Source: Acidobacteriota bacterium (GTDB lineage Bacteria > Acidobacteriota > Aminicenantia > Aminicenantales > Saccharicenantaceae). Taken from it: 64,000 bases of DNA. Below, piece after piece: positions 33,035 to 63,904 of this stretch (the first letter of the stretch is position 1; every line of letters begins with the position of its first letter). The stretch is taken from the NCBI GenBank assembly GCA_039683095.1, contig JBDKSB010000012.1, positions 92,293-156,292 on the forward strand. Direction: 5' to 3'. The translations under genes and the position numbers were made by a program. Below the pieces are notes generated by a model that ran no database searches, was not told where the DNA came from, and was given only the letters and a program-made list of their open reading frames with translations.

Positions 33035-33035
33035 G

Positions 33036-34139: not shown

Positions 34140-34142
34140 GGC

Positions 34143-35015: not shown

Positions 35016-35017
35016 GG

Positions 35018-37259: not shown

Positions 37260-37576
37260 CTCTGTTCGCTCCAAATCAGTTGCTTTGTACCCCAGCTAAA
37301 ATTCTGTGTCAACAAAAAACTTGACAATTATATAAATATAAATATAAAGAACCTGACACAGAAACAGCACCAACCATGTTTGTGCAATTTAGGTTGAACA
37401 AACGTTTTCCTAGACCTGAAACTTCAAAAATCCTGCGTTATATAAGATTACCTCATCCTTATTATTCGAAAGGAGGTGAGACCGTACCGAAGTCTGGTGA
37501 TTGGGGAAAAAGTGCGATCTTAAGGGAGATAGGTTAGGACATCCAAAAGGACAAAAAAGGAAGTGGGAGAAGAACG
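37260..37576. promoter_or_regulatory. 317-bp AT-rich divergent control region between the sugar ABC operon and the TonB-dependent receptor
   Basis: GC drops sharply. Contains TTGACAATTATATAAATATAAATATAAAG (TTGACA plus TATAAAT-like -10s), the repeat TGTGTCAACAAAAAACTTGACAA, and a GGAGGTGAG RBS-like element. Confidence 0.5.
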
Positions 37577-45504: not shown

Positions 45505-47544
45505 TCACCGGAGGCCGTCGAGCTTCTTGACGATCTCCGGCTGTCCCGGCTCGATCTCGATCGATTTCTTCCAGGCTGAGCGGGCCGATTCGAGCTCTCC
45601 CGCCCCGTAATAGCTTTCACCGAGCAGGTTGAGGATCTCGATCTTCGCCCCGAAACGGGAAAGGTATTTCTTGAAATAATAAACGGCCGAACCGAAGCCC
45701 TTCTGGAAATAGGCGGATTTCCCCAGCATCTCGTAGATCTCCGGCCGCTCCGCGGCTCTGGACAGGAACCGGACCAGGACGTCCTGGACCGCCGGATAGG
45801 CCTTCAACTCGAAAAGGGCCTGGCTCAGGCCCAGGCTGAACTCGAGGGAAGCCGGGTCCTTGCGGCAAGCCTCCTCCAGGAGGATTTTGGCCTCCTCGGG
45901 CCGGCCGCTGTTCAGCAGTTGCGTCCCCAGAATATGGGAATAGCCGGGATCATCGAGCGGCGGAAGCGCCTGGGCCAGGCGCCAGAGGGGCCGGGGCACG
46001 CGCCCGGCGTTGACGATGAAGTCCTCCCGGGCGGCGCCCAGCTCCTTCTGGTCCCCGTCCAGGAGCGTCGCGACGAGGCGATAGATCCCCGGCTCGAACT
46101 CCTTGGGCGCCAGCTCCTCGGAGAAACAGGCGGGATCCCCCAGATCCCGGAGCGAGCGGCTGACGAAGCGGACCTTCTGGTCCTCTCTAAAGAAGGATAG
46201 ATCGAGGGTCGCCGCGGCCCTCGACTCCGGGCTCATCGGCGGGATGCCGACGCTTATGACCAGCGGGGCGTCCTGGTCGAAGATCCGGCTGGCGACAGGC
46301 TGGATCTGGAGATGACCCAGGCGGAACGGCCGGAAGTCCCCGTCCGGGGAGTCCCCGGGCTCCAGGGCCCGGGACAGGAAGACGGGGCCGAGTCCGCGGG
46401 CTTCCGCGCGCGGCGGAACTACGATCTCGTCCTCGTAGGAGGTGAATTCCTTGGAGATGGGGTTCTTGATCAGGACGCTGAACTTGAAACGCCCCTCGAT
46501 CAGGGGGAAGGCGTCCTGGAACGACAACCTCTTGGTCTTCATGTCGGCGACTTCGTCCGCGCCGAAATCCAGCGAGACGTCCTTCTGGAATTGATAGACG
46601 GTCCTGTCGGCGGGATCGGAGACCCGGCCGAAGACCTCGAGATGAACAACATAGCGGTCCCCAACCCGACCGATGGAAAGCCGGTTGGGCTCCACGGCAT
46701 AATGAACGAACCGGCGGCCATCCTTCTCCGCGACGACCTTCAGGAGAGCGTCGTTCGGGACATAGTTCACGGACCGGTCGACCTCGACGATGGACTTGTA
46801 CTTGAAGAGCTTCTCGGCATAGATGTCATTGACCAGTTTCTGCGGGTAACTCTGGATCGAGGCCAGGAGCGTCTCGGACCGCATCTCGGGCATGCCCCCA
46901 TATGCATTCTGCTCTCCCGGGATGAGGGACAACGAGACGTTGGCCAGCTCCCGGTCGACGCGGAGCAGGACATTCACCGCCTGAGAGGGGTCGCCGTCGT
47001 AGGATTCGATGAGCTCCTTGGCGCCGTGCCTGATGGGGCTGTAGAGGATGTAGTCCCCGATGCCGTCCTCTTGAAAGAAGAGGACGTAAAAGGCCTGGGG
47101 AAGCCCGTGGCCATACTCCCCTTGATAGAACCAGAGGTCGATGGGGACCAGGTTCAGGCTCTCCCCGCCGTAAGAGTTCGAGCTCCTGGGTTTGCCCAGG
47201 ATGATGTGCACGCGTCCTCGATCCGTCTTCCAGCCCGGCTTCGAGGTCCCCTTGCCGAACTTCTCGTTGGCATAGCGGATCCGGTTGTAGTGCTCGATCT
47301 TGAATTCGTTCTGCGGGGTTTCCGGGATGGGGTCGCGCTGGTTCCAGAAGGCCTCGATGAAGATGTCCCTCTCCCTGTCGGAAGCCAGTTTCAGGAAGAC
47401 ATCCTTTTCTTTCGCGGTAATGATATAGACGACCTCTTCGTTCAGCCAGGCGCGGTACTTCGGAGGCAAGTCCTCGATCCGGGGAAGCGGCGAAGCGATA
47501 AGAAAGCCCGCCACAAGGAGGTGCGTCCAGAAGAATTTTTTCAT
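45505..47544 (-). CDS. GWxTD-domain protein with C-terminal TPR repeats
   Basis: Signal peptide. Motif KPGWKTDRGRVHIILGKP is the GWxTD signature (family recalled from memory, not verified). Confidence 0.7.
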   Translation of the reverse strand: MKKFFWTHLLVAGFLIASPLPRIEDLPPKYRAWLNEEVVYIITAKEKDVFLKLASDRERDIFIEAFWNQRDPIPETPQNEFKIEHYNRIRYANEKFGKGTSKPGWKTDRGRVHIILGKPRSSNSYGGESLNLVPIDLWFYQGEYGHGLPQAFYVLFFQEDGIGDYILYSPIRHGAKELIESYDGDPSQAVNVLLRVDRELANVSLSLIPGEQNAYGGMPEMRSETLLASIQSYPQKLVNDIYAEKLFKYKSIVEVDRSVNYVPNDALLKVVAEKDGRRFVHYAVEPNRLSIGRVGDRYVVHLEVFGRVSDPADRTVYQFQKDVSLDFGADEVADMKTKRLSFQDAFPLIEGRFKFSVLIKNPISKEFTSYEDEIVVPPRAEARGLGPVFLSRALEPGDSPDGDFRPFRLGHLQIQPVASRIFDQDAPLVISVGIPPMSPESRAAATLDLSFFREDQKVRFVSRSLRDLGDPACFSEELAPKEFEPGIYRLVATLLDGDQKELGAAREDFIVNAGRVPRPLWRLAQALPPLDDPGYSHILGTQLLNSGRPEEAKILLEEACRKDPASLEFSLGLSQALFELKAYPAVQDVLVRFLSRAAERPEIYEMLGKSAYFQKGFGSAVYYFKKYLSRFGAKIEILNLLGESYYGAGELESARSAWKKSIEIEPGQPEIVKKLDGLR

Positions 47545-47641: not shown

Positions 47642-48020
47642 TTTTGATGGCGCCGGTCCTTCTTCCGCATCAGTCTGATCCCTCCGCCGAGCCTGGGCGG
47701 GAGCGGCAAGCTCATCTCTCTCCGAAGCGGATTGATCCGCCCGCAGACGTCGCGCCTTAAACGCCCGGCCTCCGGACCTTATCGAAACCGCCCGAAAACC
47801 CTGGGGGCGGATCGTCCGATCCAGGGCCCTTCGAATCCCGGGAGCGGCCTCCCGATCCGCCCGGCGCCTTGGATCCGCGGAAAGAACAGGCGAGGTCCAG
47901 ATTCAAAATTTCGCTTGCAATTCGTTTTTGTTGGCTGTTTATTATCGGATATATCAGACATAAACAATCGATTATGTGCGTTCTGCGCGATTTATTACCA
48001 AATTCTCAGGGAGGAGCTTC

Positions 48021-51000
48021 ATGAAGGTATCCTTGTCCCGTCCTCTGCTCGTTCTGCTAGCAGCACTCCTCGTCACGACCGCGGGCTACGCCCAGCGGCA
48101 GACCGGCTCGATCTCGGGCCGCGTCCTGGATGCGGAGAACAACCCGCTTCCCGGCGCGACCGTCAGCCTGTCGGGCCCGGCCATGATGGGGACGCAAGAC
48201 TTCGTTTCCTCCGAAACCGGCGCCTTCCGCTTCGCCGCCCTGTCGCCGGGCAGGGACTTCGAGCTCAAGGTCGCCCTGCCGGGCTTCAAGACGGTCATCC
48301 GGCCCGGACTCATCGTCGGCGTCGGGCGGACGACCGAGGTCGACATCGTCATGGAGATGTCCACGGTCTCCGAGGAGGTCACGGTGACGGCCCCCTCGCC
48401 CGTCGTCGACGTCCAGGCGACCAAGACCAACGTCAACTACAGCGCCCAGTTCCTGGCCAGCCTGCCCATGAACCGGGACCTCTATGACATCCAGAACTCG
48501 ATCCCCGGGGCCATCTCCGAGGGCGTCGAGTACCGCCGGACGTCGTCGATCCTCGGCGGCACGGTCCGCAGCCAGCTCTACGCCCTCGACGGCGTGCCCC
48601 TCAACGACCCGGCCACGAACTACTCGATGGCCAACATCAACGTCGACGTCTACGAGGAGATCGAGTTCGAGACCGGCGGCCACCCGGCCGAGGTCGGTCA
48701 GACCGACTCGACCTACGTCAACATCGTCACCAAGAGCGGCGGCAACAAGTTCAGCGGCGGCGTGACCTTCTACTACGCGAACAAGAACCTGGCCGAGAAC
48801 CTGATCTCCGACGAGCAGGTCCTGGCCCTGGGGGTCAATCCGCCCGAGAAGTTCACGGATTACAAGGACTTGTCCCTGAACCTCGGGGGACCGGTCATCA
48901 AGGACCGGCTCTGGTTCTTCGTCAACGGCCGCCGGCTGACGTACGAGCAGGCCAACCCGCTGACGCCCGAGAACCGCATGGCTAATCTCGGCATCGCCAG
49001 CACCCACTACGACATGAACCACCAGGAATGGCTTGGCTTCGGCAAGCTGACCTTCCAGATCACGCCCAAGCTCAAGTACTTCGGCATGCTCCACTACAAC
49101 CACCTCTACGAGCCGGTCTACAACAACAGCTTCGGCTCGGACGCCGACTTCTCCTACACGCGCATCTGGGACCACGAGAACACCTACACGACGACGCACC
49201 AGTTCAACTGGATCATCAACCAGGACACGTTCCTCGACATCCGCGGCACCTATGTCTGGCGCAACTTCCCCCTCCACTCGCGCAACGAAGGCGAGTACAC
49301 CTACTACGACAACACCCAGAAGGTCTATTGGGGGACGGCCGGCTACAACGACGATTACATCCGGAAAAAGACCCTGGCCTCGGTCTCGGCGACCCGCTTC
49401 CAGGACGACTTCCTCGGGGCCAGCCACGAGTTCAAGGCGGGCTTCGAGTTCGAGCAATCCGAGTATCACCGGGACTGGTACAGGGCCAACCCCTACTACT
49501 CCTACTGGGCCAACTACGCGACCGGCAACCCCTACTATTACAACACGAGCACACGCCAGGGGCGCCTGCGCATCCGGACCTGCCCGGACAGCGCCGGCCA
49601 GTGGGACGTCCAGGACCACATCCGCCGCTTCTCGGGCTATCTTCAGGACAGCGCCCGGACGGGCCGCTGGACCATCAACGTCGGGCTGCGGCTCGATTAT
49701 TCCTATCAGTACGAGCCGCCGCAGTCCCGGCCGGAGCTCCGCTATAACTACGGCCCCGAGCTGCTCAACCCGGTTTACGGCTCCGAGAATCCGAACATCC
49801 TGCTCGAGGCTCTCATCGATCAGATCCAGACCGACCCGGCGATGGGCATCTCGCCCTGGGACGCCCTGGCCCTGACCCAGACCAAGACGGTCGTCTCCTT
49901 CACCACCCTTTCGCCCCGGCTCGGCGTCGTCTACGACGTGTTCGGGAACGGCAAGACCGCGATCAAGGCCTCCTTCGGCCGCTACTACGAGCCGGTCTGG
50001 GCGTCCAAGTACAACGGCGGCCAGATCTTCGGCGCCACCACCTTCGATTTCCGTTGGAACGACCGCAACGCCAACGGTCTGATGGACCTGCCGGCCGACG
50101 GCGACACCTATGTCCTGAGCTCCTACCAGGAACAGGATCCGACATTCAACTACTACGCCGAGAACCTCAAGACCCCCTACACGATGGAGCTGTCGCTCGG
50201 CGTCGACCAGGAGCTGGCCAAGGACTTCCGGATCGGCGGGCAGTTCCTCTACAAGATCAGCAAGAACATCGTCGACGACGTCGACATGTACAACGGCTAC
50301 GACCCGACGCTGACCGACGAGAACGGGCTCGTCTGGCTGCCCTACGACGCGACCGATCCCGGCTGGGACGGCGTCTTCGGCACCGGCGACGACAAGACCA
50401 TCACGGTCTACGGCCTCCGCGATGACCGCCCCGTGCCGACCATGTACGGCGTCAATCCGGCCGGGGCCAAGCGGCAATACTGGGCCGGCATCTTGACCTT
50501 CGACAAGCGGATGAGCCACCGCTGGCAGTTCAAGGGCTCCATCCTCTACGGCCGGTTCAAGGGCAACTGCGACCCCGGCTACTCCGCCACCGAGGGCGAA
50601 TCGACGATGTTCGACGATCCCAACACGCTGACCTACGCCTACGGCTCGGTCTCCTTCGACCGGCCCTTCCAGCTCAAGCTAATGGGCACCTACGTCCTGC
50701 CCTACGACATCATCATCAGCGCCTACCTCCAGGCCCGGAGCGGCTCCGGCTGGGGACGGACCTTCGACCGCGTCTACTTCCCGAGCGGCTTCGGAGCCCA
50801 GTCGACGTACGCCAGCAGCATCCGGACCGAGCCCGACGGCTCGCGCTGGACGCCGTCCTACACCAACCTCGACCTCCGTCTGGAGAAGGAATTCGTCTTC
50901 GCCAAGAAGGTGAAGCTCAGCGTCTACGCCGACGTCTTCAACCTGGCCGGGCGCAGCGGCATCAACATCAACGAAAACCCTTACGCCCGCCTGTACTCGG

Positions 51001-51101
51001 CGGCGACCACGCCCTACCAGACATTGAGCACGACCTACAAGCAGATCACCAGCGTCTACGGCGTCCGTTCCGTCCGGCTGGGCGCCCGAGTCACGTTCTG
51101 A
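48021..51101 (+). CDS. TonB-dependent receptor with carboxypeptidase-regulatory-like N-domain
   Basis: RBS GGAGGAG. Signal peptide MKVSLSRPLLVLLAALLVTTAGYAQ. GRVLDAENNPLPGATVSL CarbopepD_reg motif. About 1026 aa. Confidence 0.85.
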   Translation: MKVSLSRPLLVLLAALLVTTAGYAQRQTGSISGRVLDAENNPLPGATVSLSGPAMMGTQDFVSSETGAFRFAALSPGRDFELKVALPGFKTVIRPGLIVGVGRTTEVDIVMEMSTVSEEVTVTAPSPVVDVQATKTNVNYSAQFLASLPMNRDLYDIQNSIPGAISEGVEYRRTSSILGGTVRSQLYALDGVPLNDPATNYSMANINVDVYEEIEFETGGHPAEVGQTDSTYVNIVTKSGGNKFSGGVTFYYANKNLAENLISDEQVLALGVNPPEKFTDYKDLSLNLGGPVIKDRLWFFVNGRRLTYEQANPLTPENRMANLGIASTHYDMNHQEWLGFGKLTFQITPKLKYFGMLHYNHLYEPVYNNSFGSDADFSYTRIWDHENTYTTTHQFNWIINQDTFLDIRGTYVWRNFPLHSRNEGEYTYYDNTQKVYWGTAGYNDDYIRKKTLASVSATRFQDDFLGASHEFKAGFEFEQSEYHRDWYRANPYYSYWANYATGNPYYYNTSTRQGRLRIRTCPDSAGQWDVQDHIRRFSGYLQDSARTGRWTINVGLRLDYSYQYEPPQSRPELRYNYGPELLNPVYGSENPNILLEALIDQIQTDPAMGISPWDALALTQTKTVVSFTTLSPRLGVVYDVFGNGKTAIKASFGRYYEPVWASKYNGGQIFGATTFDFRWNDRNANGLMDLPADGDTYVLSSYQEQDPTFNYYAENLKTPYTMELSLGVDQELAKDFRIGGQFLYKISKNIVDDVDMYNGYDPTLTDENGLVWLPYDATDPGWDGVFGTGDDKTITVYGLRDDRPVPTMYGVNPAGAKRQYWAGILTFDKRMSHRWQFKGSILYGRFKGNCDPGYSATEGESTMFDDPNTLTYAYGSVSFDRPFQLKLMGTYVLPYDIIISAYLQARSGSGWGRTFDRVYFPSGFGAQSTYASSIRTEPDGSRWTPSYTNLDLRLEKEFVFAKKVKLSVYADVFNLAGRSGININENPYARLYSAATTPYQTLSTTYKQITSVYGVRSVRLGARVTF

Positions 51102-51113
51102 CCGTTCATTCCG

Positions 51114-51139
51114 GAGGGGGGACCAGCGGGTCCCCCCTC
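51114..51139 (+). terminator. Hairpin GAGGGGGGACC-agcg-GGTCCCCCCTC
   Basis: 11-bp perfect stem 12 bp after the receptor stop. Confidence 0.6.
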
Positions 51140-51165
51140 CCATCTTTCCTGAGGATGAGTTCTCC

Positions 51166-52785
51166 ATGATCCAGCCGGCTGCCATCGTCAAGCGGACAGC
51201 GGCGCTCCTGGCCGCGCTCCTCCTCCTTCTCGCCCTTCCGGCCCCGGCGCGGGCCGAGGACTGCACGACGGCCGTCGTCTCCGGCGCCGCGACGCCGGAC
51301 GGCCGCCCCCTGCTCTGGAAGAACAGGGACGTCGACAACCAGGACGTCAAGCTGGCCTACATCTCCGACGGCCCCCTGGCGGCCGTCGCCCTGGTCGACG
51401 TGGGCGGCTCCGCCTCCGTCTGGATGGGGGTCAACGAGGCCGGATTCGCCGTCGAGAACTCGAATTCCGAGGATCTCGAGGGGACCTCGAACGGCGGGAA
51501 CGGATCGTTCATGAGGCAGGCCCTGCTCACCTGCGCGACCGTGGACGCCTTCGAGGCCCTGCTCGTCCAGACGAACGCGACCGGGCGCTCGACCCAGGCC
51601 AATTACGGCGTCATCGACGCCTCCGGGGCCGCGGCGATATTCGAGGTCGGCAATCACACCTACCGCAAGTACGACGCGGCCGATCCGGAGGATGCGCCCA
51701 TGGGGTTCATCGTCCGGACGAACTTCGCCTTCACCGGCGACGGCTCCGGAACGGGCCAGGTCCGCTATGACCGGGGCGTCGAGCTCCTCAACGGGGCGGC
51801 CCTGGCGGGCGGCCTGACGCACGACTTCCTGCTCCGGCGCGCGGCCCGCGACCTCAAGAACGACGCCGTCGATCCCTATCCCCTGCCCTACGAGTCCGGG
51901 CAGGATGGCCGCCCGGCGGGCTTCATCCGGACCGTCTATTCGATCAACCGGACCTCGACGGCCGCCGCCGCGGTCTTCCGCGGCGTCCGGAGCGGCGAAG
52001 AGCCCGGGCTGACGACCATGTGGACGATCCTCGGCGAACCCGTCTGCTCGGTCGCCCTTCCCGTCTGGCCGCTGGCCGGCGCCGTGCCGGCCGGCCTCGG
52101 CGGGACGTCGCGGGCCCCCCTCTGCGACGCGGCCATCGTCCGGAAGGGCCTCTGCTACACCCTGCCGACCAGCCCGGATTACATCGACACGAAGGCTCTC
52201 GACGACGGCCTCGGCGGCGGCATCTTCGCCTGGACGGCGGCGATCGAAGACTGGGCGCTGGCCCGGGCGGAAGCGGCCCTGTCCGGATGGCGCGAAGCCC
52301 CGCCAACGCCTCAGGCGGCCGCCGGATTCCAGGACGAGCTGGCCCGGCAGGCTTATTGGTGCTTCCTGGCCTCGTCCGTCCCCAACGACACTCTTCCGGC
52401 GCCGCGGGAGCTGGCCTGCCGCGTGCGCGAGAACCGCTCGCTCATCCTCCGCGAATACGTCCACGTCCTGACCTGGCTCGCCCCGGTCGCGGGATCGCCG
52501 GCCGCCTACAGGATCTACGACGTCACCGCAGGCGGCCGGACGCTCTTGGCCGAGGTCCCCGCCGGGACCCTTTCGTATCTCCGGCGGCGAGTGGACCGGA
52601 CTGCGGGAACGGCCTACGCCGTCCTGGCCGTGGACGCGACGGGAGCCGAGGGCAGCCCGGCCTGCCTCGGGCCCGGCGCCGCGGCCGCGACGGTCGCGGG
52701 ACCGGCCTCGCGCTCCGTCCGCCCGCGCAAAGCGCTGCAGGGGACGTCGACGGCCCTCCGCAAGCTCGGCCAGGCCGGCGCTTGA
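51166..52785 (+). CDS. Secreted Ntn-hydrolase (peptidase C69 dipeptidase / choloylglycine-hydrolase-like)
   Basis: Signal peptide ending AEDC, then CTTAVVSGAATPDGRPLLWKNRD, the N-terminal nucleophile Cys pattern of C69/Ntn enzymes. Confidence 0.6.
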   Translation: MIQPAAIVKRTAALLAALLLLLALPAPARAEDCTTAVVSGAATPDGRPLLWKNRDVDNQDVKLAYISDGPLAAVALVDVGGSASVWMGVNEAGFAVENSNSEDLEGTSNGGNGSFMRQALLTCATVDAFEALLVQTNATGRSTQANYGVIDASGAAAIFEVGNHTYRKYDAADPEDAPMGFIVRTNFAFTGDGSGTGQVRYDRGVELLNGAALAGGLTHDFLLRRAARDLKNDAVDPYPLPYESGQDGRPAGFIRTVYSINRTSTAAAAVFRGVRSGEEPGLTTMWTILGEPVCSVALPVWPLAGAVPAGLGGTSRAPLCDAAIVRKGLCYTLPTSPDYIDTKALDDGLGGGIFAWTAAIEDWALARAEAALSGWREAPPTPQAAAGFQDELARQAYWCFLASSVPNDTLPAPRELACRVRENRSLILREYVHVLTWLAPVAGSPAAYRIYDVTAGGRTLLAEVPAGTLSYLRRRVDRTAGTAYAVLAVDATGAEGSPACLGPGAAAATVAGPASRSVRPRKALQGTSTALRKLGQAGA

Positions 52786-52868
52786 CGACGCCGCTCCCCT
52801 CGCGTGATGAGACGCCGTTTGGCAAGGCCGCATCCTTGTCATACAATAAGGCCCTTCGGACCGGACGC

Positions 52869-54998
52869 ATGAAAGCGCACAGACCGCCGCGGACGTTGCT
52901 CATCGCCGCCGCGCTGGCCCTTCTCGCCGGGGCCGTCCGGCCGGGCCGGGCCGAGGGCCGGCGAGCGAACCTGCTGCTCATCACCGTGGACACACTGCGG
53001 GCCGACCGGCTGAGCTGCTACGATCCGGCCCATGTCGCCACGCCTGCCATGGACGGGCTCGCGGCCTCGGGCCTGATCTTCGACCGCGCCTTCTCGCACG
53101 TCCCGCTGACCCTGCCGGCGCACGCCAGCCTTCTCCTCGGCATGACGCCGCCGGCCCACGGCGTCCGCGACAACGGCCGCTTCGTCGCCGCCGAAGGGTC
53201 CTTGACGCTGGCCGAGCTGCTGAAGTCGCACGGCTACGCCACGGCGGCTTTCGTCGGCGGCTATCCCCTGCACTCCCGCTTCGGCCTGGCCCAGGGCTTC
53301 GAGGTCTACGACGACCGGTTCGCCGCGGCCCCGGGCCTGGGCCGGGAATTCGCCGAGGCCCCGGCCGGCGCCGTCGCCGACAAGGCCCTGGCCTGGCTCG
53401 AGGGCCGGCGCGAGCCCTGGTTCCTCTGGGCCCACTTCTACGATCCGCACGATCCCTACGACCCGCCGGAGCCGTACCGGTCGCGGTTCAAGGACGCCCC
53501 CTACGACGGCGAGGTGGCCTACGTCGACGCGACGATCGGCCGCCTCCTGGCCCGCCTCCGGGACCTCGGCCTGCAGGGAAGGACGGTGATCGTTCTGACC
53601 GGGGACCATGGCGAATCCCTCGGCGACCACGGCGAGCTGACGCACGGCTTCCTGGCCTGCAACTCGACGCTGTGGGTGCCGCTTGTCATCGCCGCGCCGG
53701 CCGTCCGGCCCGGCCGGACCGGCGAAGTCGTCTCCCACATCGACGTCTTCCCGACCGTCTGCGATCTCCTGGCCATCCCCAAGCCCGCCGGGCTCGAAGG
53801 ACGGTCGCTAGCTCCCGCCCTGGCCGGCCGGAAGCTGGCGCCCGCGCCGGTCTACTTCGAGTGCCTCTCGCCCTACTACGGCCGGGGCTGGGCGCCCCTG
53901 CGCGGTTTTCTCGACGGGCGCATGAAGTTCGTCGATTCGCCCGTGCCCGAGCTCTACGATCTCCGCGGCGACTTCGGCGAGGCCCGCAACCTGGCCGCCG
54001 GCCGGGACCTGTCGGCCTACCGCAAGGCCCTGGCGCGGCTGGCCCGGGAGGATATGCCGGTCGGCGGTTCCGGGACGGGGGCCAAGCTCGACGCGGCGGC
54101 CGTCGAGCGGCTGCGCAGCCTGGGCTACGCGGCCGGGCCGGCCGCGCCGAAGAAGGCCGCCTTCGGACCGGCCGATGACGTCAAGGCGCTCCTCCCCCAT
54201 CACACCAAGGCCATGCGGGCCCTCGTCCTGAGCCGCGATGGCCGGGCCGGTGAGGCCGTCAGGATGCTCCAGGAGGTCATCGCGGCCCGGCCGGATCTCG
54301 ATGTCGCCCGGGTCAACCTGGCCCTCGTCTACGAAGCCGCGGGCCGGACCGGCGAGGCCCGGCAGGTGCTCATGGAAAGCCTCCGCGCCCTGCCTGAAAG
54401 CTACGACGTTTTCGCCCACGCCGCGAGCTTTCTCATCGCGGCCGGCGAGTTCCGTGAGGCCGCCTCGCTCATCGAATCCCGTTCCCTGCCGCAGATGGAG
54501 AGCGACCCGAAGATCTGGGTCGACCTCGGGCTCTGCTGCAGGAACCTGAAGGATTATGCCAAGGCCAGGACCGCCTATGAAGCGGCCCTGGCCGTCGACC
54601 CGACGTATCCCGTCGTCTATAACAACCTGGGGACGCTCGAGCTCGCCCTCCTCGAGGAAGGCCGCGATCCCGGCGCGGCCGGGAAGGCCGCGGCCCACTT
54701 CGAGAAGGCCATCGCCCTCGATCCCGGCTACGCCGCCGCCTATTACGGGCTGGGCCAGGCGCGCTACCGGGCCGGACGCCTCGACGAGGCCATCGCCGCC
54801 ATGACGGCGGCCGCCGCCCTCGATCCCGGGCTTCTGGACGCCAAGTTCTATCTGGGCCTGGCCCTTTACCGGCAGAAGCGCTTCGCCGAGGCCCTCGGCC
54901 CGCTCGTAGCCTACCGGGAGAAGGCCGGGAGCGATCTCGACGCCGCCGACCTGAGGAAGCTCGACGGGATAATCGCGGAATGCCGAGCCCGGAAATGA
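52869..54998 (+). CDS. Sulfatase-family (alkaline-phosphatase superfamily) enzyme fused to C-terminal TPR repeats
   Basis: Signal peptide. LLITVDTLRADRLSCYDP (CxxxR-like formylglycine context), GDHGE, C-terminal TPR units. Confidence 0.75.
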   Translation: MKAHRPPRTLLIAAALALLAGAVRPGRAEGRRANLLLITVDTLRADRLSCYDPAHVATPAMDGLAASGLIFDRAFSHVPLTLPAHASLLLGMTPPAHGVRDNGRFVAAEGSLTLAELLKSHGYATAAFVGGYPLHSRFGLAQGFEVYDDRFAAAPGLGREFAEAPAGAVADKALAWLEGRREPWFLWAHFYDPHDPYDPPEPYRSRFKDAPYDGEVAYVDATIGRLLARLRDLGLQGRTVIVLTGDHGESLGDHGELTHGFLACNSTLWVPLVIAAPAVRPGRTGEVVSHIDVFPTVCDLLAIPKPAGLEGRSLAPALAGRKLAPAPVYFECLSPYYGRGWAPLRGFLDGRMKFVDSPVPELYDLRGDFGEARNLAAGRDLSAYRKALARLAREDMPVGGSGTGAKLDAAAVERLRSLGYAAGPAAPKKAAFGPADDVKALLPHHTKAMRALVLSRDGRAGEAVRMLQEVIAARPDLDVARVNLALVYEAAGRTGEARQVLMESLRALPESYDVFAHAASFLIAAGEFREAASLIESRSLPQMESDPKIWVDLGLCCRNLKDYAKARTAYEAALAVDPTYPVVYNNLGTLELALLEEGRDPGAAGKAAAHFEKAIALDPGYAAAYYGLGQARYRAGRLDEAIAAMTAAAALDPGLLDAKFYLGLALYRQKRFAEALGPLVAYREKAGSDLDAADLRKLDGIIAECRARK

Positions 54999-55001
54999 AA
55001 C

Positions 55002-56024
55002 ATGGAGGTTGACATGCGTTGCTGCTCACGCCGCGCGGCCGTCCTCGCGGCGGCTGTCGCTCTGGCCTTCGCCTGCGCCCTGACGGCCGCCCCGCCGCTC
55101 GCGGCCCAGGAGAACATCGGCCGCGGCCGGATCACCGGCCAGGTCGTCGACGAGACGGGCCAGCCACTGGCCGGGGCGAAGATCGTGGTCCAGATCGTCG
55201 ACGGGACGACCCGGCTCGAAGGGATGTCGGACAAGAAGGGCCGCTTCGCCGTGGCCGGCATGGGCACGGGACGGTGGCGCGTCACGGCGACCCTCGAAGG
55301 CCATGCCGACTCGTTCGTCGAGATGTCCATCAGCCAGGTCCGGCCCAATCCGGCCGTCACGCTGACGCTGAAGAGCGCCGGCGGCCGGGGGTTCCAGGCC
55401 GACCCCGAGAGCCTGGCCGCCCTCGACCGGGCCACCGCCCTCGAAAAGGAGGGCCGGCTCGACGAGGCCCTGGCCGAGCTCGAGGGCTTCCTTCGGAAGT
55501 ACCCGGACATCTTCCAGGTCCGGACCAACCTCGGCGCCATCCGCCTCGAGAAGGGCGACCTGGCCGGCGCCGAAGCCGAGTTCCGGGCCGTCCTGGACGC
55601 GACCGCCGGGGCGGCGGGCCAGCTGCCCAAGGACAAGGCCTCGGCCGCCCGCGCCTTGACCGGCCTGGGCGAGGTCGCGCTCAAGAAGGACGACCTCGGG
55701 ACCGCGGTCCGGTCCTTCAGCGACGCCCTGGCCCTCTCGCCCGACGACGAGGCCGCGGCCTACAACGTCGGCGAGATCCTGTTCTCGAACCAGAGGATCG
55801 ACGAGGCCATCAGCTACTTTGAAATGGCCATCCGGATCAACAAGGATTGGCCCCGGCCCTATCACAAGCTCGGGTTCGTCCATCTCAACAAGGGCGAATA
55901 CGACCAGGCCCTCGAGTTCTTCCGTAAGTTCCTCGAGCTCGACCCCGAGGGCCCGGAGGCGCCCGCCGTCAAGAACGTCATGGAGGCCATTGCCAAGATG
56001 AAAAAGTCCGGAGAGCCCCGATGA
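55002..56024 (+). CDS. Secreted CarbopepD_reg-like domain plus TPR protein
   Basis: GRITGQVVDETGQPLAGAKIVV...DKKGRF, then TPR units. Start may be 55014. Confidence 0.6.
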   Translation: MEVDMRCCSRRAAVLAAAVALAFACALTAAPPLAAQENIGRGRITGQVVDETGQPLAGAKIVVQIVDGTTRLEGMSDKKGRFAVAGMGTGRWRVTATLEGHADSFVEMSISQVRPNPAVTLTLKSAGGRGFQADPESLAALDRATALEKEGRLDEALAELEGFLRKYPDIFQVRTNLGAIRLEKGDLAGAEAEFRAVLDATAGAAGQLPKDKASAARALTGLGEVALKKDDLGTAVRSFSDALALSPDDEAAAYNVGEILFSNQRIDEAISYFEMAIRINKDWPRPYHKLGFVHLNKGEYDQALEFFRKFLELDPEGPEAPAVKNVMEAIAKMKKSGEPR

Positions 56025-57709
56025 TCGCCGGGGGATCCTTTGTCCGCCGGGCGGCCGGTCCGGCCGCCGTCCTCCTCCTCGGCCTGTCGGCCGCCTGCGC
56101 CGGGAGCCGGCCGGTCGGTCCGGGCGACGTCGTGGCCGGCCGGGCCATGGTCGCCTCGGCCCACCCCGCCGCCACGGCCGTCGGCCTCGAGATCCTCAAG
56201 AAGGGCGGCAACGCCGTCGATGCCGCCGTGGCCACGGCTTTCGCCCTGAGCATGGCCGAGCCGAACGCCTCGGGCGTCGGGGGCGGCGGCTTCATGATCA
56301 TCAAGATGGCCGGCCAGCCCGGGGCGGTCATGATCGATTACCGGGAGACGGCCCCCCGCAACGCGACGCCGGAATATTACTACGGGGCGGGCCCGTCCTT
56401 CGACGCCCGGACGGCCGAGGGGCCGGACGCGGTCGGCGTGCCCGGGCTGGTCGCCGGCGCCGCCCTGGCCCTGGACAAGTACGGCACGATGAGCCTGGCC
56501 CGGGTCCTCGAACCGGCCATCCGGCTCTGCCGGGAGGGCGTCACGGTCAGCCCGAAGCTCAACGGGATGATCGTCGAGAACATGGAAAAGATCCAGAAAT
56601 ACCCGGCCGCGGCGGCCATCTACCTGCCGGACGGCCTGCCGGCCGAGCCAGGGGCCGTGCTTCGCAACGAGGACCTGGCCGTGACGCTGGAGAGGATCGC
56701 GGCCGGCGGGCCGCGCGTCTTCTACGAAGGCCCGACGGCCGAGGCTGTCGCCGCCGAGCTCCGGCGGCTGGGCGGGGTCATGGAGGCCGCGGACCTAGCC
56801 GGCTACCGGGCCAAGCTCCGGACACCCGTCACCGGGACCTACCGCGGCTACGAGATCCTGTCGGCGGCGCCGCCGACGGGCGGCGGCACCCACCTCGTCG
56901 AGCTCCTGAACATCATCGAGGGCTTCGACGTGAAAAGCATGGGTCCGGGGAGCGCCCGGCTCATCCACGTCCTGGCCGAGGCCATGAAGATGATCTACGC
57001 CGACAAGGCCGTCAATTCCGGCGACCCCGACGTTTTCGACATCCCCGTGGCCGCACTGACCGACAAGGCCTACGCCGCCAGGCTGCGGGACCGGATCGTC
57101 GAGGCGAAGGCCCGCTTCGATTACGCCCCGCCTTCGCTCGTCGGCAGGGAGAGCGAGAGCACCTCCCACCTGTCCGTCGCCGACGAGAAGGGCAACGTCG
57201 TCGCCCTGACCCAGAGCATCAACAGCTTCTTCGGCTCGGGCGTCGTCGTCCCCGGCACGGGCATCATCCTCAACAATCACCTGGCTGATTTCGACAGCCA
57301 GGCCGGCGGCCCGAACGCCATCGGCCCGGGCCGGCGCCCGGCCAGCAGCATCGCCCCGACGGTGGTCTGCCGGTCCGGGAAGCCGGTCCTGGTCCTGGGC
57401 TCGCCCGGCGCGGCCCGGATCGTTTCGGCCCTGGCCCAGATCGTCATCAACTTCGTCGATTTCGGCATGGGCCTGGACGAAGCCATCGAGGCGCCGCGGG
57501 TGCACTGCCTGACAAAAACCCTGGCCGTCGAGGGGCGCATCCCCGGCGAGGTCGTCAAGACGCTCGAGTCCTGGGGGCACAAGGTCAAGGTCTATCCGGA
57601 CTGGGACAACTATTTCGGGGGAGCCCAGGGGATCTTTCTCGACGCCCGGGCCGGGAGGATCTGCGGCGCGGCCGACTCCCGCCGGGACGGCGCGGCCGCG
57701 GGCTATTGA
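56021..57709 (+). CDS. ggt: Gamma-glutamyltranspeptidase
   Basis: Signal peptide. Autocleavage and nucleophile site TSHLSVADEKGNVVALTQSIN. GGT-family small-subunit motifs. Confidence 0.9.
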   Translation: MIAGGSFVRRAAGPAAVLLLGLSAACAGSRPVGPGDVVAGRAMVASAHPAATAVGLEILKKGGNAVDAAVATAFALSMAEPNASGVGGGGFMIIKMAGQPGAVMIDYRETAPRNATPEYYYGAGPSFDARTAEGPDAVGVPGLVAGAALALDKYGTMSLARVLEPAIRLCREGVTVSPKLNGMIVENMEKIQKYPAAAAIYLPDGLPAEPGAVLRNEDLAVTLERIAAGGPRVFYEGPTAEAVAAELRRLGGVMEAADLAGYRAKLRTPVTGTYRGYEILSAAPPTGGGTHLVELLNIIEGFDVKSMGPGSARLIHVLAEAMKMIYADKAVNSGDPDVFDIPVAALTDKAYAARLRDRIVEAKARFDYAPPSLVGRESESTSHLSVADEKGNVVALTQSINSFFGSGVVVPGTGIILNNHLADFDSQAGGPNAIGPGRRPASSIAPTVVCRSGKPVLVLGSPGAARIVSALAQIVINFVDFGMGLDEAIEAPRVHCLTKTLAVEGRIPGEVVKTLESWGHKVKVYPDWDNYFGGAQGIFLDARAGRICGAADSRRDGAAAGY

Positions 57710-57737
57710 GATCTCGAAACGAACGGAGGCTGATATC

Positions 57738-58763
57738 ATGAAAAGATCGACGGCTTCGATCCTGACGCTTTTCGCGGCCCTGGCCGCGTTCTCCTGCGCC
57801 AAACCGGCGAAAAGCCGCGAGGCCCTGATCGAGGAGGTCCTGTTAAAGAAGCAGGACGTCACCATCGTGGTCACGGACTCGGGACTGGGCGGGTTGTCGG
57901 TCGCGGCCGACATCGCCGCCCGGCTGCCGGGCAGCGGCGTCTTTCGCCGGGCCCGCATCGTTTTCTACAACGCCCTCTTCGACAACCTCGGCTACAACGG
58001 CTTGGCCTCCGAAGCCGAGAAGGACCGCATCTTCGACGTCGTTCTCCGGGCCATGAAAAAGCGCTACCGGCCCGACATCCTGCTCATCGCCTGCAACACC
58101 CTGTCGGTCGTCTACGACCGGACGGCCTTCTCCCGAAAAGCGCCCTTCCCGGTGGTCGGCATCGTCGATACGGGCGTCGACCTCATCGCCCGGCAATTCG
58201 AAAAGACCCCCGGGGCCACGGCCATCCTCTTCGGGACGAAGACCACGATCGAGAACGAAGCGCACAAGAAGGCCCTCGTGGCCCGGGGGTTCCCGGCCGA
58301 ACGGATCGTCGGCCAGGCCTGCCACAAGCTGGCCGGGGCGATCGAGCGGGGCATCGCGACGGAGGAGACGGTGGGTTACATCCGCCGGTTCGTGGACGAG
58401 GCCCTGGCCAAGACCGGCCCCGCCGCCGGGCCCCTGTTCGCCAGCTTCAACTGCACCCACTACGGCTACGCCCGGCAGCAGTTCGCCGAGGCCTTCGCCG
58501 CGGCCGGGCGCCCGGGGATCGAGCTCCTCGATCCCAACCCGCTCATGGGCGACGTCCTCTTCCGGCCGGCCTATCTCCACAGGCATCCGCGGACTGAGGT
58601 GGCCGTCGAGGTCGTCTCCAAGCTGGAGATCACCGAGCAGGAACGCGGGGCCATCGGGCCGCTCCTCGAAGCGGTCTCCCCGGCCGTGGCCGCGGCCTTC
58701 CGGAACTACACCCTCGACCCGAAGCTCTTCGAGGTCGCCTTCGAGCGGCCGAAGAAGAAATAG
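57738..58763 (+). CDS. Exported glutamate-racemase homologue (Asp/Glu racemase superfamily) with lipoprotein signal
   Basis: Signal and lipobox MKRSTASILTLFAALAAFSC. VTDSGLGGLSV (MurI DSGxGG), ILLIACNTLS (catalytic Cys1), FNCTHYGY (catalytic Cys2 CTHY). Confidence 0.65.
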   Translation: MKRSTASILTLFAALAAFSCAKPAKSREALIEEVLLKKQDVTIVVTDSGLGGLSVAADIAARLPGSGVFRRARIVFYNALFDNLGYNGLASEAEKDRIFDVVLRAMKKRYRPDILLIACNTLSVVYDRTAFSRKAPFPVVGIVDTGVDLIARQFEKTPGATAILFGTKTTIENEAHKKALVARGFPAERIVGQACHKLAGAIERGIATEETVGYIRRFVDEALAKTGPAAGPLFASFNCTHYGYARQQFAEAFAAAGRPGIELLDPNPLMGDVLFRPAYLHRHPRTEVAVEVVSKLEITEQERGAIGPLLEAVSPAVAAAFRNYTLDPKLFEVAFERPKKK

Positions 58764-60586: not shown

Positions 60587-61447
60587 CTATTTCTTCAGCG
60601 GGACGATCCCGGCCATCTCGCCGATGACGTTGACCAGATCCTTGTCCGAAGGCACGATGATCTTGGCGTTGGCTTGAAGCGCGGTCTCCAGGGCCTGGAG
60701 GCGGCGCAGGATCTGGGCGTTTCCGACGAAGTACTTCTCGGCCGCCTCGTTGACCAGCCGGATGGCCTCGGCCTCGCCCTGAGCCTCGAGGATCTTGGCC
60801 TGGCGGACGCCCTCGGCCTTCTTGATCTCGGCCCGGCGGTCGCCGTCGGCCGACGTTTCCTTGGCCGTGGCGAAGTCGATGGCGGCGATCTTCTCGTTCT
60901 CGGCCTTGACGACCTTGTTCATCGTCTCCTGGACGTCCTTGGGCGGGTCGATCTCCTTGAGCTCGGTCCGGACGATGTCGATGCCCCAGCGCGCCGTCTC
61001 TGTGGACAGGGTCTTGAGCAGCTCCTCGTTGATCTTGCCCCGCTCGCTGTTGGCCGATTTCAGGGTCAGGGTGCCGATGATGTTGCGCAGGGTCGTCCGG
61101 GCCAGGTTGACGATCTGCCACTGGAAGTTGTTGACGTGGTACTGGGAGGCCTTGACGCTGGCCTCGTCCTCCTTGACCCGGAAGTAGACCTGGGCGTCGA
61201 CGCGGGCGTTGAGGTTGTCGTTGGTGATGATCTCCTGGGGCGCGGCGTCGACCATCATCTCGGTGATGTTGATCTGGCGCAGCTGTTCGACGACCGGGAT
61301 GACCCAGTTGAATCCGGGCGTCGCGAAACGTTGGTACTTGCCCAGCCGCTCGACCAGGCCGCGGTGGGTCGGCCGGACGATGCGGATGCCAAGAAGAAAG
61401 ATGAAGACGACCAGGCCGGCGATCCAAAGATAAACAGCCATTTGCAT
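60587..61447 (-). CDS. SPFH/Band-7 (stomatin/prohibitin-like) membrane protein
   Basis: N-terminal TM helix. SPFH core and C-terminal coiled-coil/Ala-rich region. Confidence 0.85.
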   Translation of the reverse strand: MQMAVYLWIAGLVVFIFLLGIRIVRPTHRGLVERLGKYQRFATPGFNWVIPVVEQLRQINITEMMVDAAPQEIITNDNLNARVDAQVYFRVKEDEASVKASQYHVNNFQWQIVNLARTTLRNIIGTLTLKSANSERGKINEELLKTLSTETARWGIDIVRTELKEIDPPKDVQETMNKVVKAENEKIAAIDFATAKETSADGDRRAEIKKAEGVRQAKILEAQGEAEAIRLVNEAAEKYFVGNAQILRRLQALETALQANAKIIVPSDKDLVNVIGEMAGIVPLKK

Positions 61448-61523
61448 TTGTCTCCTCCCTGCGATGACGCGCTTTTCAGACTTTATCGCCGCCCTTCCGG
61501 AAAGTCAACCAAGAGGGGGTCGG

Positions 61524-62240
61524 CTACATCTTCCAGGTGCCGGCGACGATGAGGTTCGCCCCGGTCATCGCCGCCGCCTTGTCCGAGGCGCAGTAGGCCA
61601 CAGCCCCGGCGACGTCCTCGAAGGTTCCGATCTGGGACTCCGAGACGTTCTTCAGGGAAGGCATGGCGCCGCCCCGGATGAGCCCGGGCGAGACCATGTT
61701 GATCGTGATCCCGTTCACGATCTCGGCCGCTGCGGCGGTCCGCGTCAGGGTGAGCAGGCCGGTCTTGGCCACGGCGTAGGCGGCGATGGTGGGGAAGGCG
61801 CCGAGATGCTCGGCCCGGCTGTAGCCGATGTTGACGATCCTCCCCCACTTCCGCCTGCGCATGCCGGGCAGGGCCGCCTTCAGGCAGAAGTAAGGCCCGA
61901 GCAGGTTGCCCCGGAGGGCCTTGTCCCAATCGGCGACCTCCAGCTGGTCCCAGGGCTTGACCAGGAAGGGCCCGACGTTGTTGACCAGGATGTCGACCCG
62001 GGCGAACCGCTCCTCGACCTTCTTGATCAGGCCGGCGGCCTGGGCCTTCTTGGTCAGGTCGGCCCGGAAGACGGCCGAGAGCTTGCCCTTCTCGCGGATG
62101 GCCGCGGCCAGCTCCTGGGCCTCCTCGCGCCTGCTGAAATAGTGGACGGCCACGCCGGAGACGTCCTCGGCCAGCCGCAGGGCGATGGCTCGGCCGATGC
62201 CGCGGCTGGCCCCGGTGACGAGGGCGATGCGCAGGCTCAT
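61524..62240 (-). CDS. Short-chain dehydrogenase/reductase (FabG-like)
   Basis: TGASRGIG cofactor motif, NNVG, catalytic YSRAEHLGAFPTIAAYAVAK (YxxxK). Confidence 0.85.
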   Translation of the reverse strand: MSLRIALVTGASRGIGRAIALRLAEDVSGVAVHYFSRREEAQELAAAIREKGKLSAVFRADLTKKAQAAGLIKKVEERFARVDILVNNVGPFLVKPWDQLEVADWDKALRGNLLGPYFCLKAALPGMRRRKWGRIVNIGYSRAEHLGAFPTIAAYAVAKTGLLTLTRTAAAAEIVNGITINMVSPGLIRGGAMPSLKNVSESQIGTFEDVAGAVAYCASDKAAAMTGANLIVAGTWKM

Positions 62241-62244
62241 GGCG

Positions 62245-63771
62245 TCACGCCAGGGTCCCGACGGCCTTCTCGACCGCGTCCAGGATCTCCCCGGACGCCA
62301 CGACCTCCTTGAGCGCGTTGATGTCGTTGTAAAGGGGCCGGTCCTCTTCGAGGCGCGCGACGTGCTTGCGGATGACGTCGTAGGCGGCCTGGGTGCCCTT
62401 CCCGGGCCGGACCGGCTTGCGGAAATCGAGGGCCTGGGCCCCGGCCATGAACTCGATGGCCAGGACGGCCTGGGCGTTGTCGAGGATCTGGCGGGTCTTG
62501 AGGGCCGTGGTCATGCCCATGCTGACGAAGTCCTCCTGGTCCGCGGCGGCCGGGATGGAGCCGGTGGCGGCCGGATGGGACAGGACGCGGTTCTCGCAGA
62601 CGAGGGCCCCGGCCGTGTACTGGCTCAGCATCAGGCCCGAGAACATGCCCGCGCCCTTGGTCAGGAAGGCCGGCAGGCCGGCGCTGAGATGCGGGTTCAT
62701 CAGCCGGTTGTGGCGGCGCTCGGACAGGACCGCGATCGTGGTCACGGCGGTGCCGAGGAGCTCGAGCGGGAAGGCCATGGGCACGCCCTGGAAATTGGCC
62801 CCGGTCAGGACGAGCTGCTCGTCGGGGAAGAAGACCGGGTTGTCGGCCGCGCCGTTGATCTCGATCTCGATCATGTAGCGGGCCCACTTGAGGGCGTCGC
62901 GGCCGGCGCCGACGACCTGGGGTGTGCTGCGAAGGCTGTAGGCGTCCTGGACCTTCTTGCCCGGCTGGGCCAGGAGCTCGCTTCCCTCGGTGATGCGGCG
63001 GACGTTGGCCGCCGATTCCAGCGCGCCGGGATAGCCGCGGGTCTTGTGGAGGCGCTCGTCGTAGGCCTTCATGTTGGCGTTGAGGGCCTCGAGGGTCATG
63101 GCCGCGGCGATCTCGGAAGCCTTGAGCCAGCGGTGGACGTCGTAAACGGTCAGCGCGGCCATGCCGGCGATGACGTTCGAGCCGTTGATCATGGCCAGGC
63201 CGTCCCGGGCGTGGAGGACGAGCGGCGTGATGCCGGCCCGCTTGAGGGCCTCGGCCCCGGGCAGGCGCTCGCCCTTGTAGAAAGCCTCGCCCTCGCCCAT
63301 CGGGACCAGGGCCATCTGGGCCATCGGCGAGAGGTCACCGCAGGCGCCGACCGAGCCCTTCTCGCACATGACCGGGGTGACGCCCTTGTTGAGGAGCTCA
63401 GCCAGGGTCTCGGTGACGACCGGCCGGAGCCCGGAGTGGCCGTGGCAGTGGCAGTTGATGCGGCCGAGGATGGCCGCCCGGACGATGTCTTCGGGCATGG
63501 GCTGGCCGTAGCCCGCGGCATGGCTGTAGATGAGGTAGCGCTGGAACTTCTCGACCTGCTCCTGGGTCAGGACGACGTTGGCCAGCTCGCCGATGCCCGT
63601 ATTGACGCCGTACATGATCTCTTTCTTCTGGATCTTGTCCTCGAGCAGGGCCCGGCATTTCTCGATGCGCTTCTTGGCCTCCGGGTCCAGGGCGACGGGG
63701 ACGCGGCCGCGCGCCACCTCGACGACCCTCTCGACGGTCAGACCCGTGCCGGTCAGGTTGATAGCCATGGG
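62245..63771 (-). CDS. Aromatic/histidine ammonia-lyase family (HAL/PAL/TAL) enzyme with Ala-Cys-Gly at the MIO position
   Basis: Start MAINLTGTGLTVERV. GSVGACGDLSPMAQ aligns to the HAL GSVGASGDLAPLAH. Codon TGC confirmed on the DNA at ~63335. Confidence 0.8.
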   Translation of the reverse strand, partial: PMAINLTGTGLTVERVVEVARGRVPVALDPEAKKRIEKCRALLEDKIQKKEIMYGVNTGIGELANVVLTQEQVEKFQRYLIYSHAAGYGQPMPEDIVRAAILGRINCHCHGHSGLRPVVTETLAELLNKGVTPVMCEKGSVGACGDLSPMAQMALVPMGEGEAFYKGERLPGAEALKRAGITPLVLHARDGLAMINGSNVIAGMAALTVYDVHRWLKASEIAAAMTLEALNANMKAYDERLHKTRGYPGALESAANVRRITEGSELLAQPGKKVQDAYSLRSTPQVVGAGRDALKWARYMIEIEINGAADNPVFFPDEQLVLTGANFQGVPMAFPLELLGTAVTTIAVLSERRHNRLMNPHLSAGLPAFLTKGAGMFSGLMLSQYTAGALVCENRVLSHPAATGSIPAAADQEDFVSMGMTTALKTRQILDNAQAVLAIEFMAGAQALDFRKPVRPGKGTQAAYDVIRKHVARLEEDRPLYNDINALKEVVASGEILDAVEKAVGTLA

Positions 63772-63904
63772 GAGAGCCTCCTCGGAGTGATGGTCAGGAT
63801 CGCGACTCATGGTGAGCCCTATCACTTTAACCGAAGTCCGGGAAGGGGTCAAACCCGGGGGCCGGCTGGCCCGGCCCGGCCGTGTTGCCGTCCGGCGGCC
63901 GCTG

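Follow-up and report, generated by a model that had tools for sequence, protein, structure and literature searches.

A putatively exported MurI-like racemase encoded beside gamma-glutamyltranspeptidase in an Acidobacteriota bacterium

Glutamate racemases of the MurI type (EC 5.1.1.3) are cell-wall enzymes and antibiotic targets, which normally act in the cytoplasm and supply D-glutamate to MurD. Bsr enzymes (e.g. BsrV of Vibrio cholerae) are periplasmic broad-spectrum racemases that depend on pyridoxal phosphate (PLP) and possess the alanine-racemase fold, while the secreted proline racemase of Trypanosoma cruzi is a eukaryotic, cofactor-independent two-cysteine enzyme with a DapF-like fold. 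To our knowledge, the characterised periplasmic amino-acid racemases are all PLP-dependent. The characterised MurI enzymes RacE and YrpC are cytoplasmic (PMC4928254). A stretch of 64,000 nt from an Acidobacteriota bacterium (Saccharicenantaceae; assembly GCA_039683095.1, contig JBDKSB010000012.1, positions 92,293-156,292 of the forward strand), analysed here as a whole and referred to as the window, encodes a protein with a MurI-type active site behind a predicted export signal, next to a gene for gamma-glutamyltranspeptidase (GGT; Table 1). This protein is very likely an exported, catalytically competent MurI-like enzyme, as judged from its sequence and modelled fold. The fuller reading, a periplasmic thiol-based glutamate racemase that operates with GGT and salvages D-glutamate, is given a probability of about 0.55; that glutamate is the substrate, that the reaction runs from D to L and that the role is nutritional, we infer from the conserved residues and the gene context.

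As compared with MurI/RacE (PDB 2jfx, 1zuw and 3uhf), the window protein has the same two-domain Asp/Glu-racemase fold, the motifs DSGxGG, ACNT and CTHY and, besides the GTxxT loop, eight residues with catalytic or auxiliary roles. It differs from MurI in sequence (16-22% identity), in its score with the MurI profile (68.6 bits against a cutoff of 146.65), in the segment FYNA..GYN which replaces YxGD..PYG, and in an N-terminus extended by about 37 residues, which form the signal, tether and helix, together with a longer C-terminus. It is also predicted to be exported, and its gene lies beside GGT and hydrolases, whereas MurI is encoded with cell-wall genes. With Bsr enzymes it would share the export of an amino-acid racemase to the periplasm of a diderm bacterium, but PF01177, a cofactor-independent fold, is the only family found in it. 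The proline racemase of T. cruzi is likewise a two-cysteine, cofactor-independent racemase that leaves the cytoplasm, but has another fold and substrate, and no homology to it was seen in any search made. The window enzyme appears MurI-like in chemistry and Bsr-like in topology while being a member of neither group.

Catalytic residues, fold and export signal

The racemase open reading frame (ORF) is considered a real gene, because its GC content at codon positions 1/2/3 (0.65/0.45/0.92) resembles that of the neighbouring genes, a GGAGG sequence lies 5' of the ATG, and gene calls on two independent metagenome contigs give the identical protein. Long antisense ORFs, such as the one of 247 residues opposite the racemase gene (57843-58586, - strand), do not show the GC3 signature and are explained as artefacts by the 66% GC content of the window.

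The residues D7, S8, C70, T72, E150, C181, T182 and H183 are reported to be catalytic in MurI of Helicobacter pylori (PMC6927343). In HMMER alignments with MurI structures, all eight are matched by residues of the window protein (D47, S48, C119, T121, E203, C239, T240 and H241, respectively), and these are invariant or nearly so in alignment A1, which comprises 62 family sequences and was used for both residue conservation and the AlphaFold model. The two catalytic cysteines and the DSGxGG motif that had been recognised from the letters alone (the sequence-only reading) are therefore confirmed as Cys119 in IACNT, Cys239 in NCTHYG and DSGLGG at residues 47-52.

Asp_Glu_race (PF01177) is the sole Pfam family found in the protein (36.9 bits; cutoff 31), and MurI (TIGR00067) is its best NCBIfam profile, as it is for all 62 members of A1 (best E-value 5e-25), every one of which scores under the equivalog cutoff. 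The AlphaFold model (pLDDT 93.7, pTM 0.89) retrieved MurI structures as the top 44 Foldseek matches in the PDB (identity 16-22%, target-normalised TM-score 0.66-0.79), with aspartate racemases following. The latter (TIGR00035; PDB 1jfl and 2dx7) belong to the same superfamily, use the two-cysteine mechanism and form the second-best structural class, but match far more weakly (22.2 bits against a cutoff of 93.1; Foldseek E-value 1e-6, TM-score 0.43-0.47). The cysteate racemase model is weakly touched by 14 of the 62 members. Hydantoin racemase, maleate isomerase and arylmalonate decarboxylase gave no NCBIfam match at E<=1 and were found neither among the PDB sequence matches nor among the top 50 Foldseek matches. 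By both profile and fold, the placement nearest to MurI is upheld, but the earlier description as a MurI homologue needs narrowing, since the protein falls below the MurI cutoff and has an altered YxGD..PYG segment. It appears to be a catalytically intact MurI-like enzyme yet not an orthodox MurI, and belongs to a separate, uncharacterised MurI-like family rather than being the housekeeping enzyme. No second Asp_Glu_race gene was found in the window by phmmer on six-frame ORFs.

The N-terminus of the protein reads MKRSTASILTLFAALAAFSC, and residues 1-20, read from the sequence, fit the PROSITE lipoprotein pattern PS51257 (K2/R3, uncharged T10-L15 and A16-A17-F18-S19-C20), so that the protein is probably lipidated at Cys20. 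In a database set of 121 sequences (the 120 best homologues and the window protein), 110 have a hydrophobic segment that terminates in Cys at 25-28 residues N-terminal of DSGxGG and 70 match a PROSITE-type lipoprotein pattern, while Cys20 is invariant across A1. The 11 homologues without the signal Cys are fragments, a transposase fusion, the assembly chimera P0041 or short calls. The first ~85 residues of P0041, a seemingly signal-less close homologue, derive from a divergent homologue that has no signal, while the remainder shares ~97% identity with the window protein; P0041 is most likely a chimera joined at the conserved LIACNTLSV. For P0090, the one short database form examined, the upstream frame encodes a signal (MKFSMHFIFTVVLVHILFYGC); such short forms result from truncation or from a miscalled start, the latter being directly seen in P0090. 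The lipoprotein-type signal proposed in the sequence-only reading is well supported by this conservation.

A cytoplasmic location would follow if the protein were an ordinary MurI whose apparent signal was due to a misassigned start codon or to accidental hydrophobicity. This reading, to which the location of RacE and YrpC (PMC4928254) and the presence of signal-less family entries of 314-319 residues lend some support, is contradicted by the data and very improbable, as the signal is kept in the 110 homologues while switching between lipobox and AxA types, the short entry P0090 is a demonstrable miscall, and the score is far under the MurI cutoff. The downstream start that the sequence-only reading had itself raised is not usable: among the first 50 codons the only alternative in-frame start is GTG at codon 44, which lacks a ribosome-binding site, falls within predicted beta-strand 1 (residues 40-47), is replaced by CTG in a 93%-identical orthologue and would truncate the racemase fold. 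A start-codon artefact is accordingly rejected.

In genomes, 51 of 79 loci from species-representative genomes carry the lipobox Cys (locus counts of 79 or 80 rest on the best 80 of the relatives in 476 genomes). Most of the others, mainly from Thermoanaerobaculia and other Acidobacteriota, have AxA signals, e.g. ...AAFGARA followed by EKP in Thermoanaerobaculia. Since the type of signal switches among clades yet the signal persists, export would be a conserved and selected trait of the signal-bearing relatives, and lipid anchoring seems limited to some clades, including that of the window.

Linkage to gamma-glutamyltranspeptidase and the proposed role

The end of the GGT gene and the start of the racemase gene are 28 nt apart, this gap contains no terminator-like site, and the GGT recognised in the sequence-only reading passes the equivalog cutoff (Table 1). 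In 7 of 7 contig look-ups (54-100% identity), GGT adjoins the racemase gene or lies within about 1.5 kb of it. Among the 80 genome loci, 21 have GGT within about 6 kb, comprising every Aminicenantes-type locus outside the window (8 of 8), 9 of about 15 loci of the KSB1/Zhuqueibacterota type and 4 from Calditrichia, Melioribacteraceae and Bacteroidota. Because a genome usually has few GGT genes, we take this linkage to be far beyond chance. A GGT-C45-GGT-racemase cassette, in which C45 denotes a family of Ntn hydrolases, occurs in metagenome-assembled genomes (MAGs) of Melioribacteraceae, Calditrichaceae and Bacteroidota (L081, L088 and L090), and an AAT-like C45 gene lies upstream in L007, L015, L021 and L022.

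The N-terminus of the window GGT is a lipoprotein-type signal (...LLLGLSAAC followed by AG), the lipobox of which is kept in orthologues of the Aminicenantes clade, while the readable GGTs of the FCB group have ordinary AxA signals. As both proteins have such a signal, GGT and the racemase may be co-anchored.

The convergent gene downstream encodes the D-aminoacylase homologue that the sequence-only reading had also placed here, and its N-terminus (MERRPVRLSVLLALALGLAAGAPNRLAAAG) is a signal peptide; the stop codons of this gene and the racemase gene are 15 nt apart. The homologue is present in L001, L006, L007, L015, L017, L018, L021 and L022. Beyond it, the genes at 60587-63852 (- strand) encode a Band7/SPFH protein, a short-chain dehydrogenase and an aromatic amino acid ammonia-lyase/aminomutase. 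In Aminicenantes-type genomes, the Band7/SPFH block keeps its syntenic place downstream of the racemase gene with or without D-aminoacylase (L003, L015-L021), and D-aminoacylase therefore looks like a variable insertion.

Other genes recur near the racemase homologues. An AstE/AspA-like gene (succinylglutamate desuccinylase/aspartoacylase) lies downstream in L007 (8949-10088), L036 (9149-10267) and ~10 KSB1-type loci; a DctM-type (TRAP) permease with DUF6305 is close by in L006 and L007; and N-formylglutamate amidohydrolase and a D-Ser-dehydratase-like gene are further recurring neighbours. The recurrent neighbour enzymes are predicted to release glutamate or to act on D-amino acids. A DUF2461 gene directly precedes that of the racemase homologue in a Zhuqueibacterota MAG (L011/L012), and is also found near a signal-less cousin, beside a D-Ser-dehydratase-like gene (L097).

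In the proposed salvage route, the Sec pathway would export a cofactor-independent, two-cysteine racemase of the MurI type, which lipidation at Cys20 would tether near the membrane, with about six residues between Cys20 and the first helix. Cys119 and Cys239 would catalyse a two-base racemisation of glutamate. D-glutamate is one of the main D-amino acids in bacterial necromass, and GGT accepts D-gamma-glutamyl donors. GGT acts as an exo-hydrolase on poly-gamma-glutamate and releases glutamate (PMC4928254). The window GGT could thus free glutamate from poly-gamma-glutamate, glutathione-like peptides and gamma-D-Glu peptides of cell-wall origin, while the exported D-aminoacylase could free D-amino acids from N-acyl-D-amino acids. 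The racemase would then convert D-Glu to importable L-Glu outside the cytoplasm, for L-specific uptake and metabolism, and the three enzymes would form an extracytoplasmic salvage module for necromass D-glutamate. Periplasmic interconversion of D- and L-Glu (or Asp), as suggested in the sequence-only reading, is supported as an interpretation by the conserved residues and the gene context.

Several observations weigh against this route. All family members tested score below the MurI equivalog cutoff, and the segment corresponding to YxGD(x4)PYG of MurI reads FYNALFDNLGYNG in the window protein, with GYN invariant in the family, so the substrate specificity could differ from that of MurI; YxGD..PYG is conserved in MurI as judged from aligned PDB sequences. 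The presumed gamma-carboxylate contacts of the racemase are argued from motif conservation. An oxidising periplasm is a hazard to a thiol/thiolate pair. The -3 residue of the lipobox is Ala, the classical Leu being absent, and cleavage by signal peptidase I (between SCA and K) may be an option for the window protein. D-aminoacylase is present in only part of the window-clade genomes, and GGT in 0 of ~40 sampled loci of Thermoanaerobaculia, Holophagales and Vicinamibacteria, so that coupling to GGT is not a universal role. The Thermoanaerobaculia/Holophagales branch has no conserved neighbour, with glyoxalase-like, SDR, threonine-aldolase-like and unknown-family genes recurring patchily. An exported glutamate racemase is not described in the searched literature, in which nothing relevant was found on Aminicenantes and D-amino acids either.

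The altered segment bears most directly on the possibility that the enzyme is an exported MurI-fold racemase or epimerase of a substrate other than free glutamate, such as aspartate, alpha-aminoadipate, an N-acyl-glutamate or the glutamyl residue of gamma-glutamyl peptides, and that it acts either before GGT or the C45 hydrolase, by making their substrates, or after them, on their products. The sub-cutoff scores of all 62 tested members, the invariant GYN in place of PYG with loss of YxGD, the two small internal insertions (about 16 extra residues) and the N- and C-terminal extensions relative to MurI, the weak contact of 14 members with the cysteate racemase model, and the co-occurrence of a C45 acyltransferase/hydrolase, whose family handles omega-linked aminoadipyl or acyl groups, are all consistent with such a substrate. 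We nevertheless regard it as unlikely, though worth keeping in view, as all the MurI catalytic residues and the GTxxT loop are retained, MurI clearly surpasses the other families both as a profile and as a fold match, GGT, the AstE/AspA-like deacylase and N-formylglutamate amidohydrolase would yield free glutamate and not need an epimerised peptide, and D-aminoacylase could yield free D-Glu.

The gene context likewise bears on direction. Racemases are reversible, and the same export and active-site evidence would apply to a glutamate racemase running from L to D, for which the periplasmic racemases releasing D-amino acids (BsrV of V. cholerae) offer a precedent. Such an enzyme could supply periplasmic D-Glu for envelope remodelling, Bsr-like signalling or capsule chemistry of the CapD type by GGT, as CapD, a member of the GGT family, anchors gamma-glutamyl polymers to peptidoglycan (PMC4928254). 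This direction is improbable, however, as the cluster contains no poly-gamma-glutamate synthase or cell-wall synthesis genes, the neighbours (TonB-dependent-type outer-membrane protein, sulfatase, C45 hydrolase and D-aminoacylase) are of the degradative or uptake type, and the adjoining GGT scores above the cutoff of the ordinary GGT equivalog model and does not look CapD-like.

Extended to the family, D-glutamate salvage leads to a more tentative proposal: exported, thiol-based, cofactor-independent glutamate racemases and GGT may form a conserved extracytoplasmic module, joined by the C45 hydrolase, D-aminoacylase and the AstE-like deacylase in some lineages, which harvests D-glutamate from peptidoglycan debris and poly-gamma-glutamate and turns it into L-Glu ahead of uptake. 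If so, its beneficiaries would be uncultured phyla of sediment and sludge, among them Aminicenantes and other Acidobacteriota, KSB1, Calditrichota, Ignavibacteria, Marinimicrobia and Zhuqueibacterota. The module would represent a route not recognised so far in the cycling of D-amino acids and necromass, and would suggest how abundant uncultured detritus degraders use D-glutamate. The window enzyme would be the first periplasmic racemase of the MurI type and would indicate that two-thiol racemase chemistry works outside the cytoplasm too. It would also define a MurI-like family which annotation pipelines now label 'glutamate racemase' or 'Asp/Glu racemase family protein', and the metagenome counts of 'glutamate racemase' would mix housekeeping enzymes with exported, probably catabolic ones.

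Distribution and signal-less relatives

Relatives of the window protein occur in 476 species-representative genomes (one genome per species scanned), the nearest being an Aminicenantes-type Acidobacteriota MAG with 93% identity. The best 80 belong to Aminicenantes, Thermoanaerobaculia, Holophagales, Vicinamibacteria, KSB1, Zhuqueibacterota, Calditrichia, Melioribacteraceae/Ignavibacteria, Bacteroidota and Eisenbacteria, and a further homologue search with a Melioribacteraceae member as query adds Marinimicrobia. No cultured organism is among the matches listed, all of which are MAG or metagenome sequences. In databases the family is labelled 'glutamate racemase', 'aspartate/glutamate racemase family protein' or 'hypothetical'.

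Among 1.84 billion cluster representatives there are 252 matches at E<=1e-30. About a third of the best 150 of these carry a signal, while the remainder include many proteins of ~295-310 residues with no room for one. The sequence-only reading had called an exported racemase of this superfamily unusual, which holds against the characterised enzymes only, given the number of genomes with relatives and the share of signal-bearing representatives. The signal-less cousins (e.g. P0124 and P0225) are 33-46% identical over the whole catalytic core, contain TDSGLGG, GYN, CNT and CTH, and are likewise under the MurI cutoff; they differ in lacking a signal peptide and in their gene contexts, which are URO-D-like, D-Ser-dehydratase-like or with N-formylglutamate amidohydrolase, and have no GGT. 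Their cluster names are uninformative on function. In a rough neighbour-joining ordering, the signal-bearing members fall into several blocks, which suggests that the signal was gained or lost more than once.

Vicinamibacteria MAGs contain two paralogues of the family, which are adjacent in L060 (3522-5045 and 5701-6906) and ~8.6 kb apart on the L059/L084 contig. A signal peptide is present in one of the two, while the other apparently has none and begins right at the domain (MNDELTIAVTDSG), hinting at paired periplasmic and cytoplasmic enzymes. In L096 (3860-5918), two tandem signal-less members are followed by Peripla_BP_6, N-formylglutamate amidohydrolase and an MFS transporter, which is another glutamate-related context for the wider family.

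Neighbouring genes in the window

The racemase gene lies in a co-directional cluster, the features of which are collected in Table 1 together with those of the racemase itself.

Table 1. Genes of the cluster, and sequence elements of the racemase, with coordinates in the window
Feature	Coordinates	Strand	Evidence and remarks
TonB-dependent-type outer-membrane protein	47976..51101	+	Heads the co-directional cluster; same position in L007
Exported C45-family (AAT-like) Ntn hydrolase	51166..52785	+	NF040521 and PF03417, both weak
Sulfatase-TPR protein	52869..54998	+	Pfam; L001 gene call shifted by 49916; order same in L007
CarboxypepD_reg and TPR protein	55002..56024	+	Overlaps GGT start by 4 nt
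GGT, 562 residues, lipobox LSAAC	56021..57709	+	TIGR00066, 494.7 bits (cutoff 357.85); Pfam G_glu_transpept
GGAGG ribosome-binding site	57725..57729	+	8 nt 5' of ATG; kept in L015 and L016
Exported MurI-like racemase ORF (export predicted)	57738..58763	+	341 residues; stop codon within coordinates
Signal peptide, residues 1-19 (predicted)	57738..57794	+	n-region MKR, h-region A6-F18; low-confidence helix 4-18 in AlphaFold model
Lipobox A17-F18-S19-C20	57786..57797	+	Cys20 (57795-57797), predicted lipidation site
Family-specific N-terminal helix, residues 27-37 (REALIEEVLLK)	57816..57848	+	Between lipid anchor and strand 1; AlphaFold, block pLDDT 81-97; kept in alignment consensus
DSGLGG, residues 47-52	57876..57893	+	D47/S48 = H. 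pylori MurI D7/S8; invariant in A1; HMMER alignments to MurI structures
GYNG loop	57990..58001	+	G85-Y86-N87 invariant; replaces PYG of MurI YxGD..PYG; aligned to VPYG of H. pylori and C. jejuni MurI
IACNT, residues 117-121	58086..58100	+	First catalytic Cys119 (58092-58094) and T121; C119/N120/T121 invariant; aligned to MurI ACNT
GTKTT	58233..58247	+	T167/T170 align with MurI GTxxT loop; T167, T169 and T170 invariant
AIERG with E203	58338..58352	+	E203 = H. pylori MurI E150; nearly invariant; aligned to PLVE of S. aureus and B. subtilis MurI
NCTHYG, residues 238-243	58449..58466	+	Second catalytic Cys239 (58452-58454), T240, H241; C239/T240 invariant, H241 nearly; aligned to MurI GCTHYP
Exported D-aminoacylase / N-acyl-D-glutamate deacylase homologue, 599 residues	58779..60578	-	Convergent; PDB 1m7j (E 2e-67) and 3gip (E 2e-61); Amidohydro_3

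The C45 hydrolase resembles acyl-CoA:6-APA acyltransferase and has a Cys just after its predicted cleavage site (ARA followed by EDC). A GC-rich hairpin of 12 bp with 10 G-C pairs and a T-rich tail lies 3' of the outer-membrane protein gene (51113-51140, + strand) and is terminator-like, while a sigma-70-like site is located at 52819-52847, upstream of the sulfatase gene; both suggest sub-operons inside the co-directional cluster.

The window region is rich in envelope and uptake genes overall. These include a sugar-type ABC transporter at 31928-37274 (- strand), which consists of a binding protein, a permease and two ATPases (one MalK-like), a second CarboxypepD_reg/Plug outer-membrane protein at 37577-40390 (+ strand), and a GWxTD-domain/TPR protein at 45505-47544.

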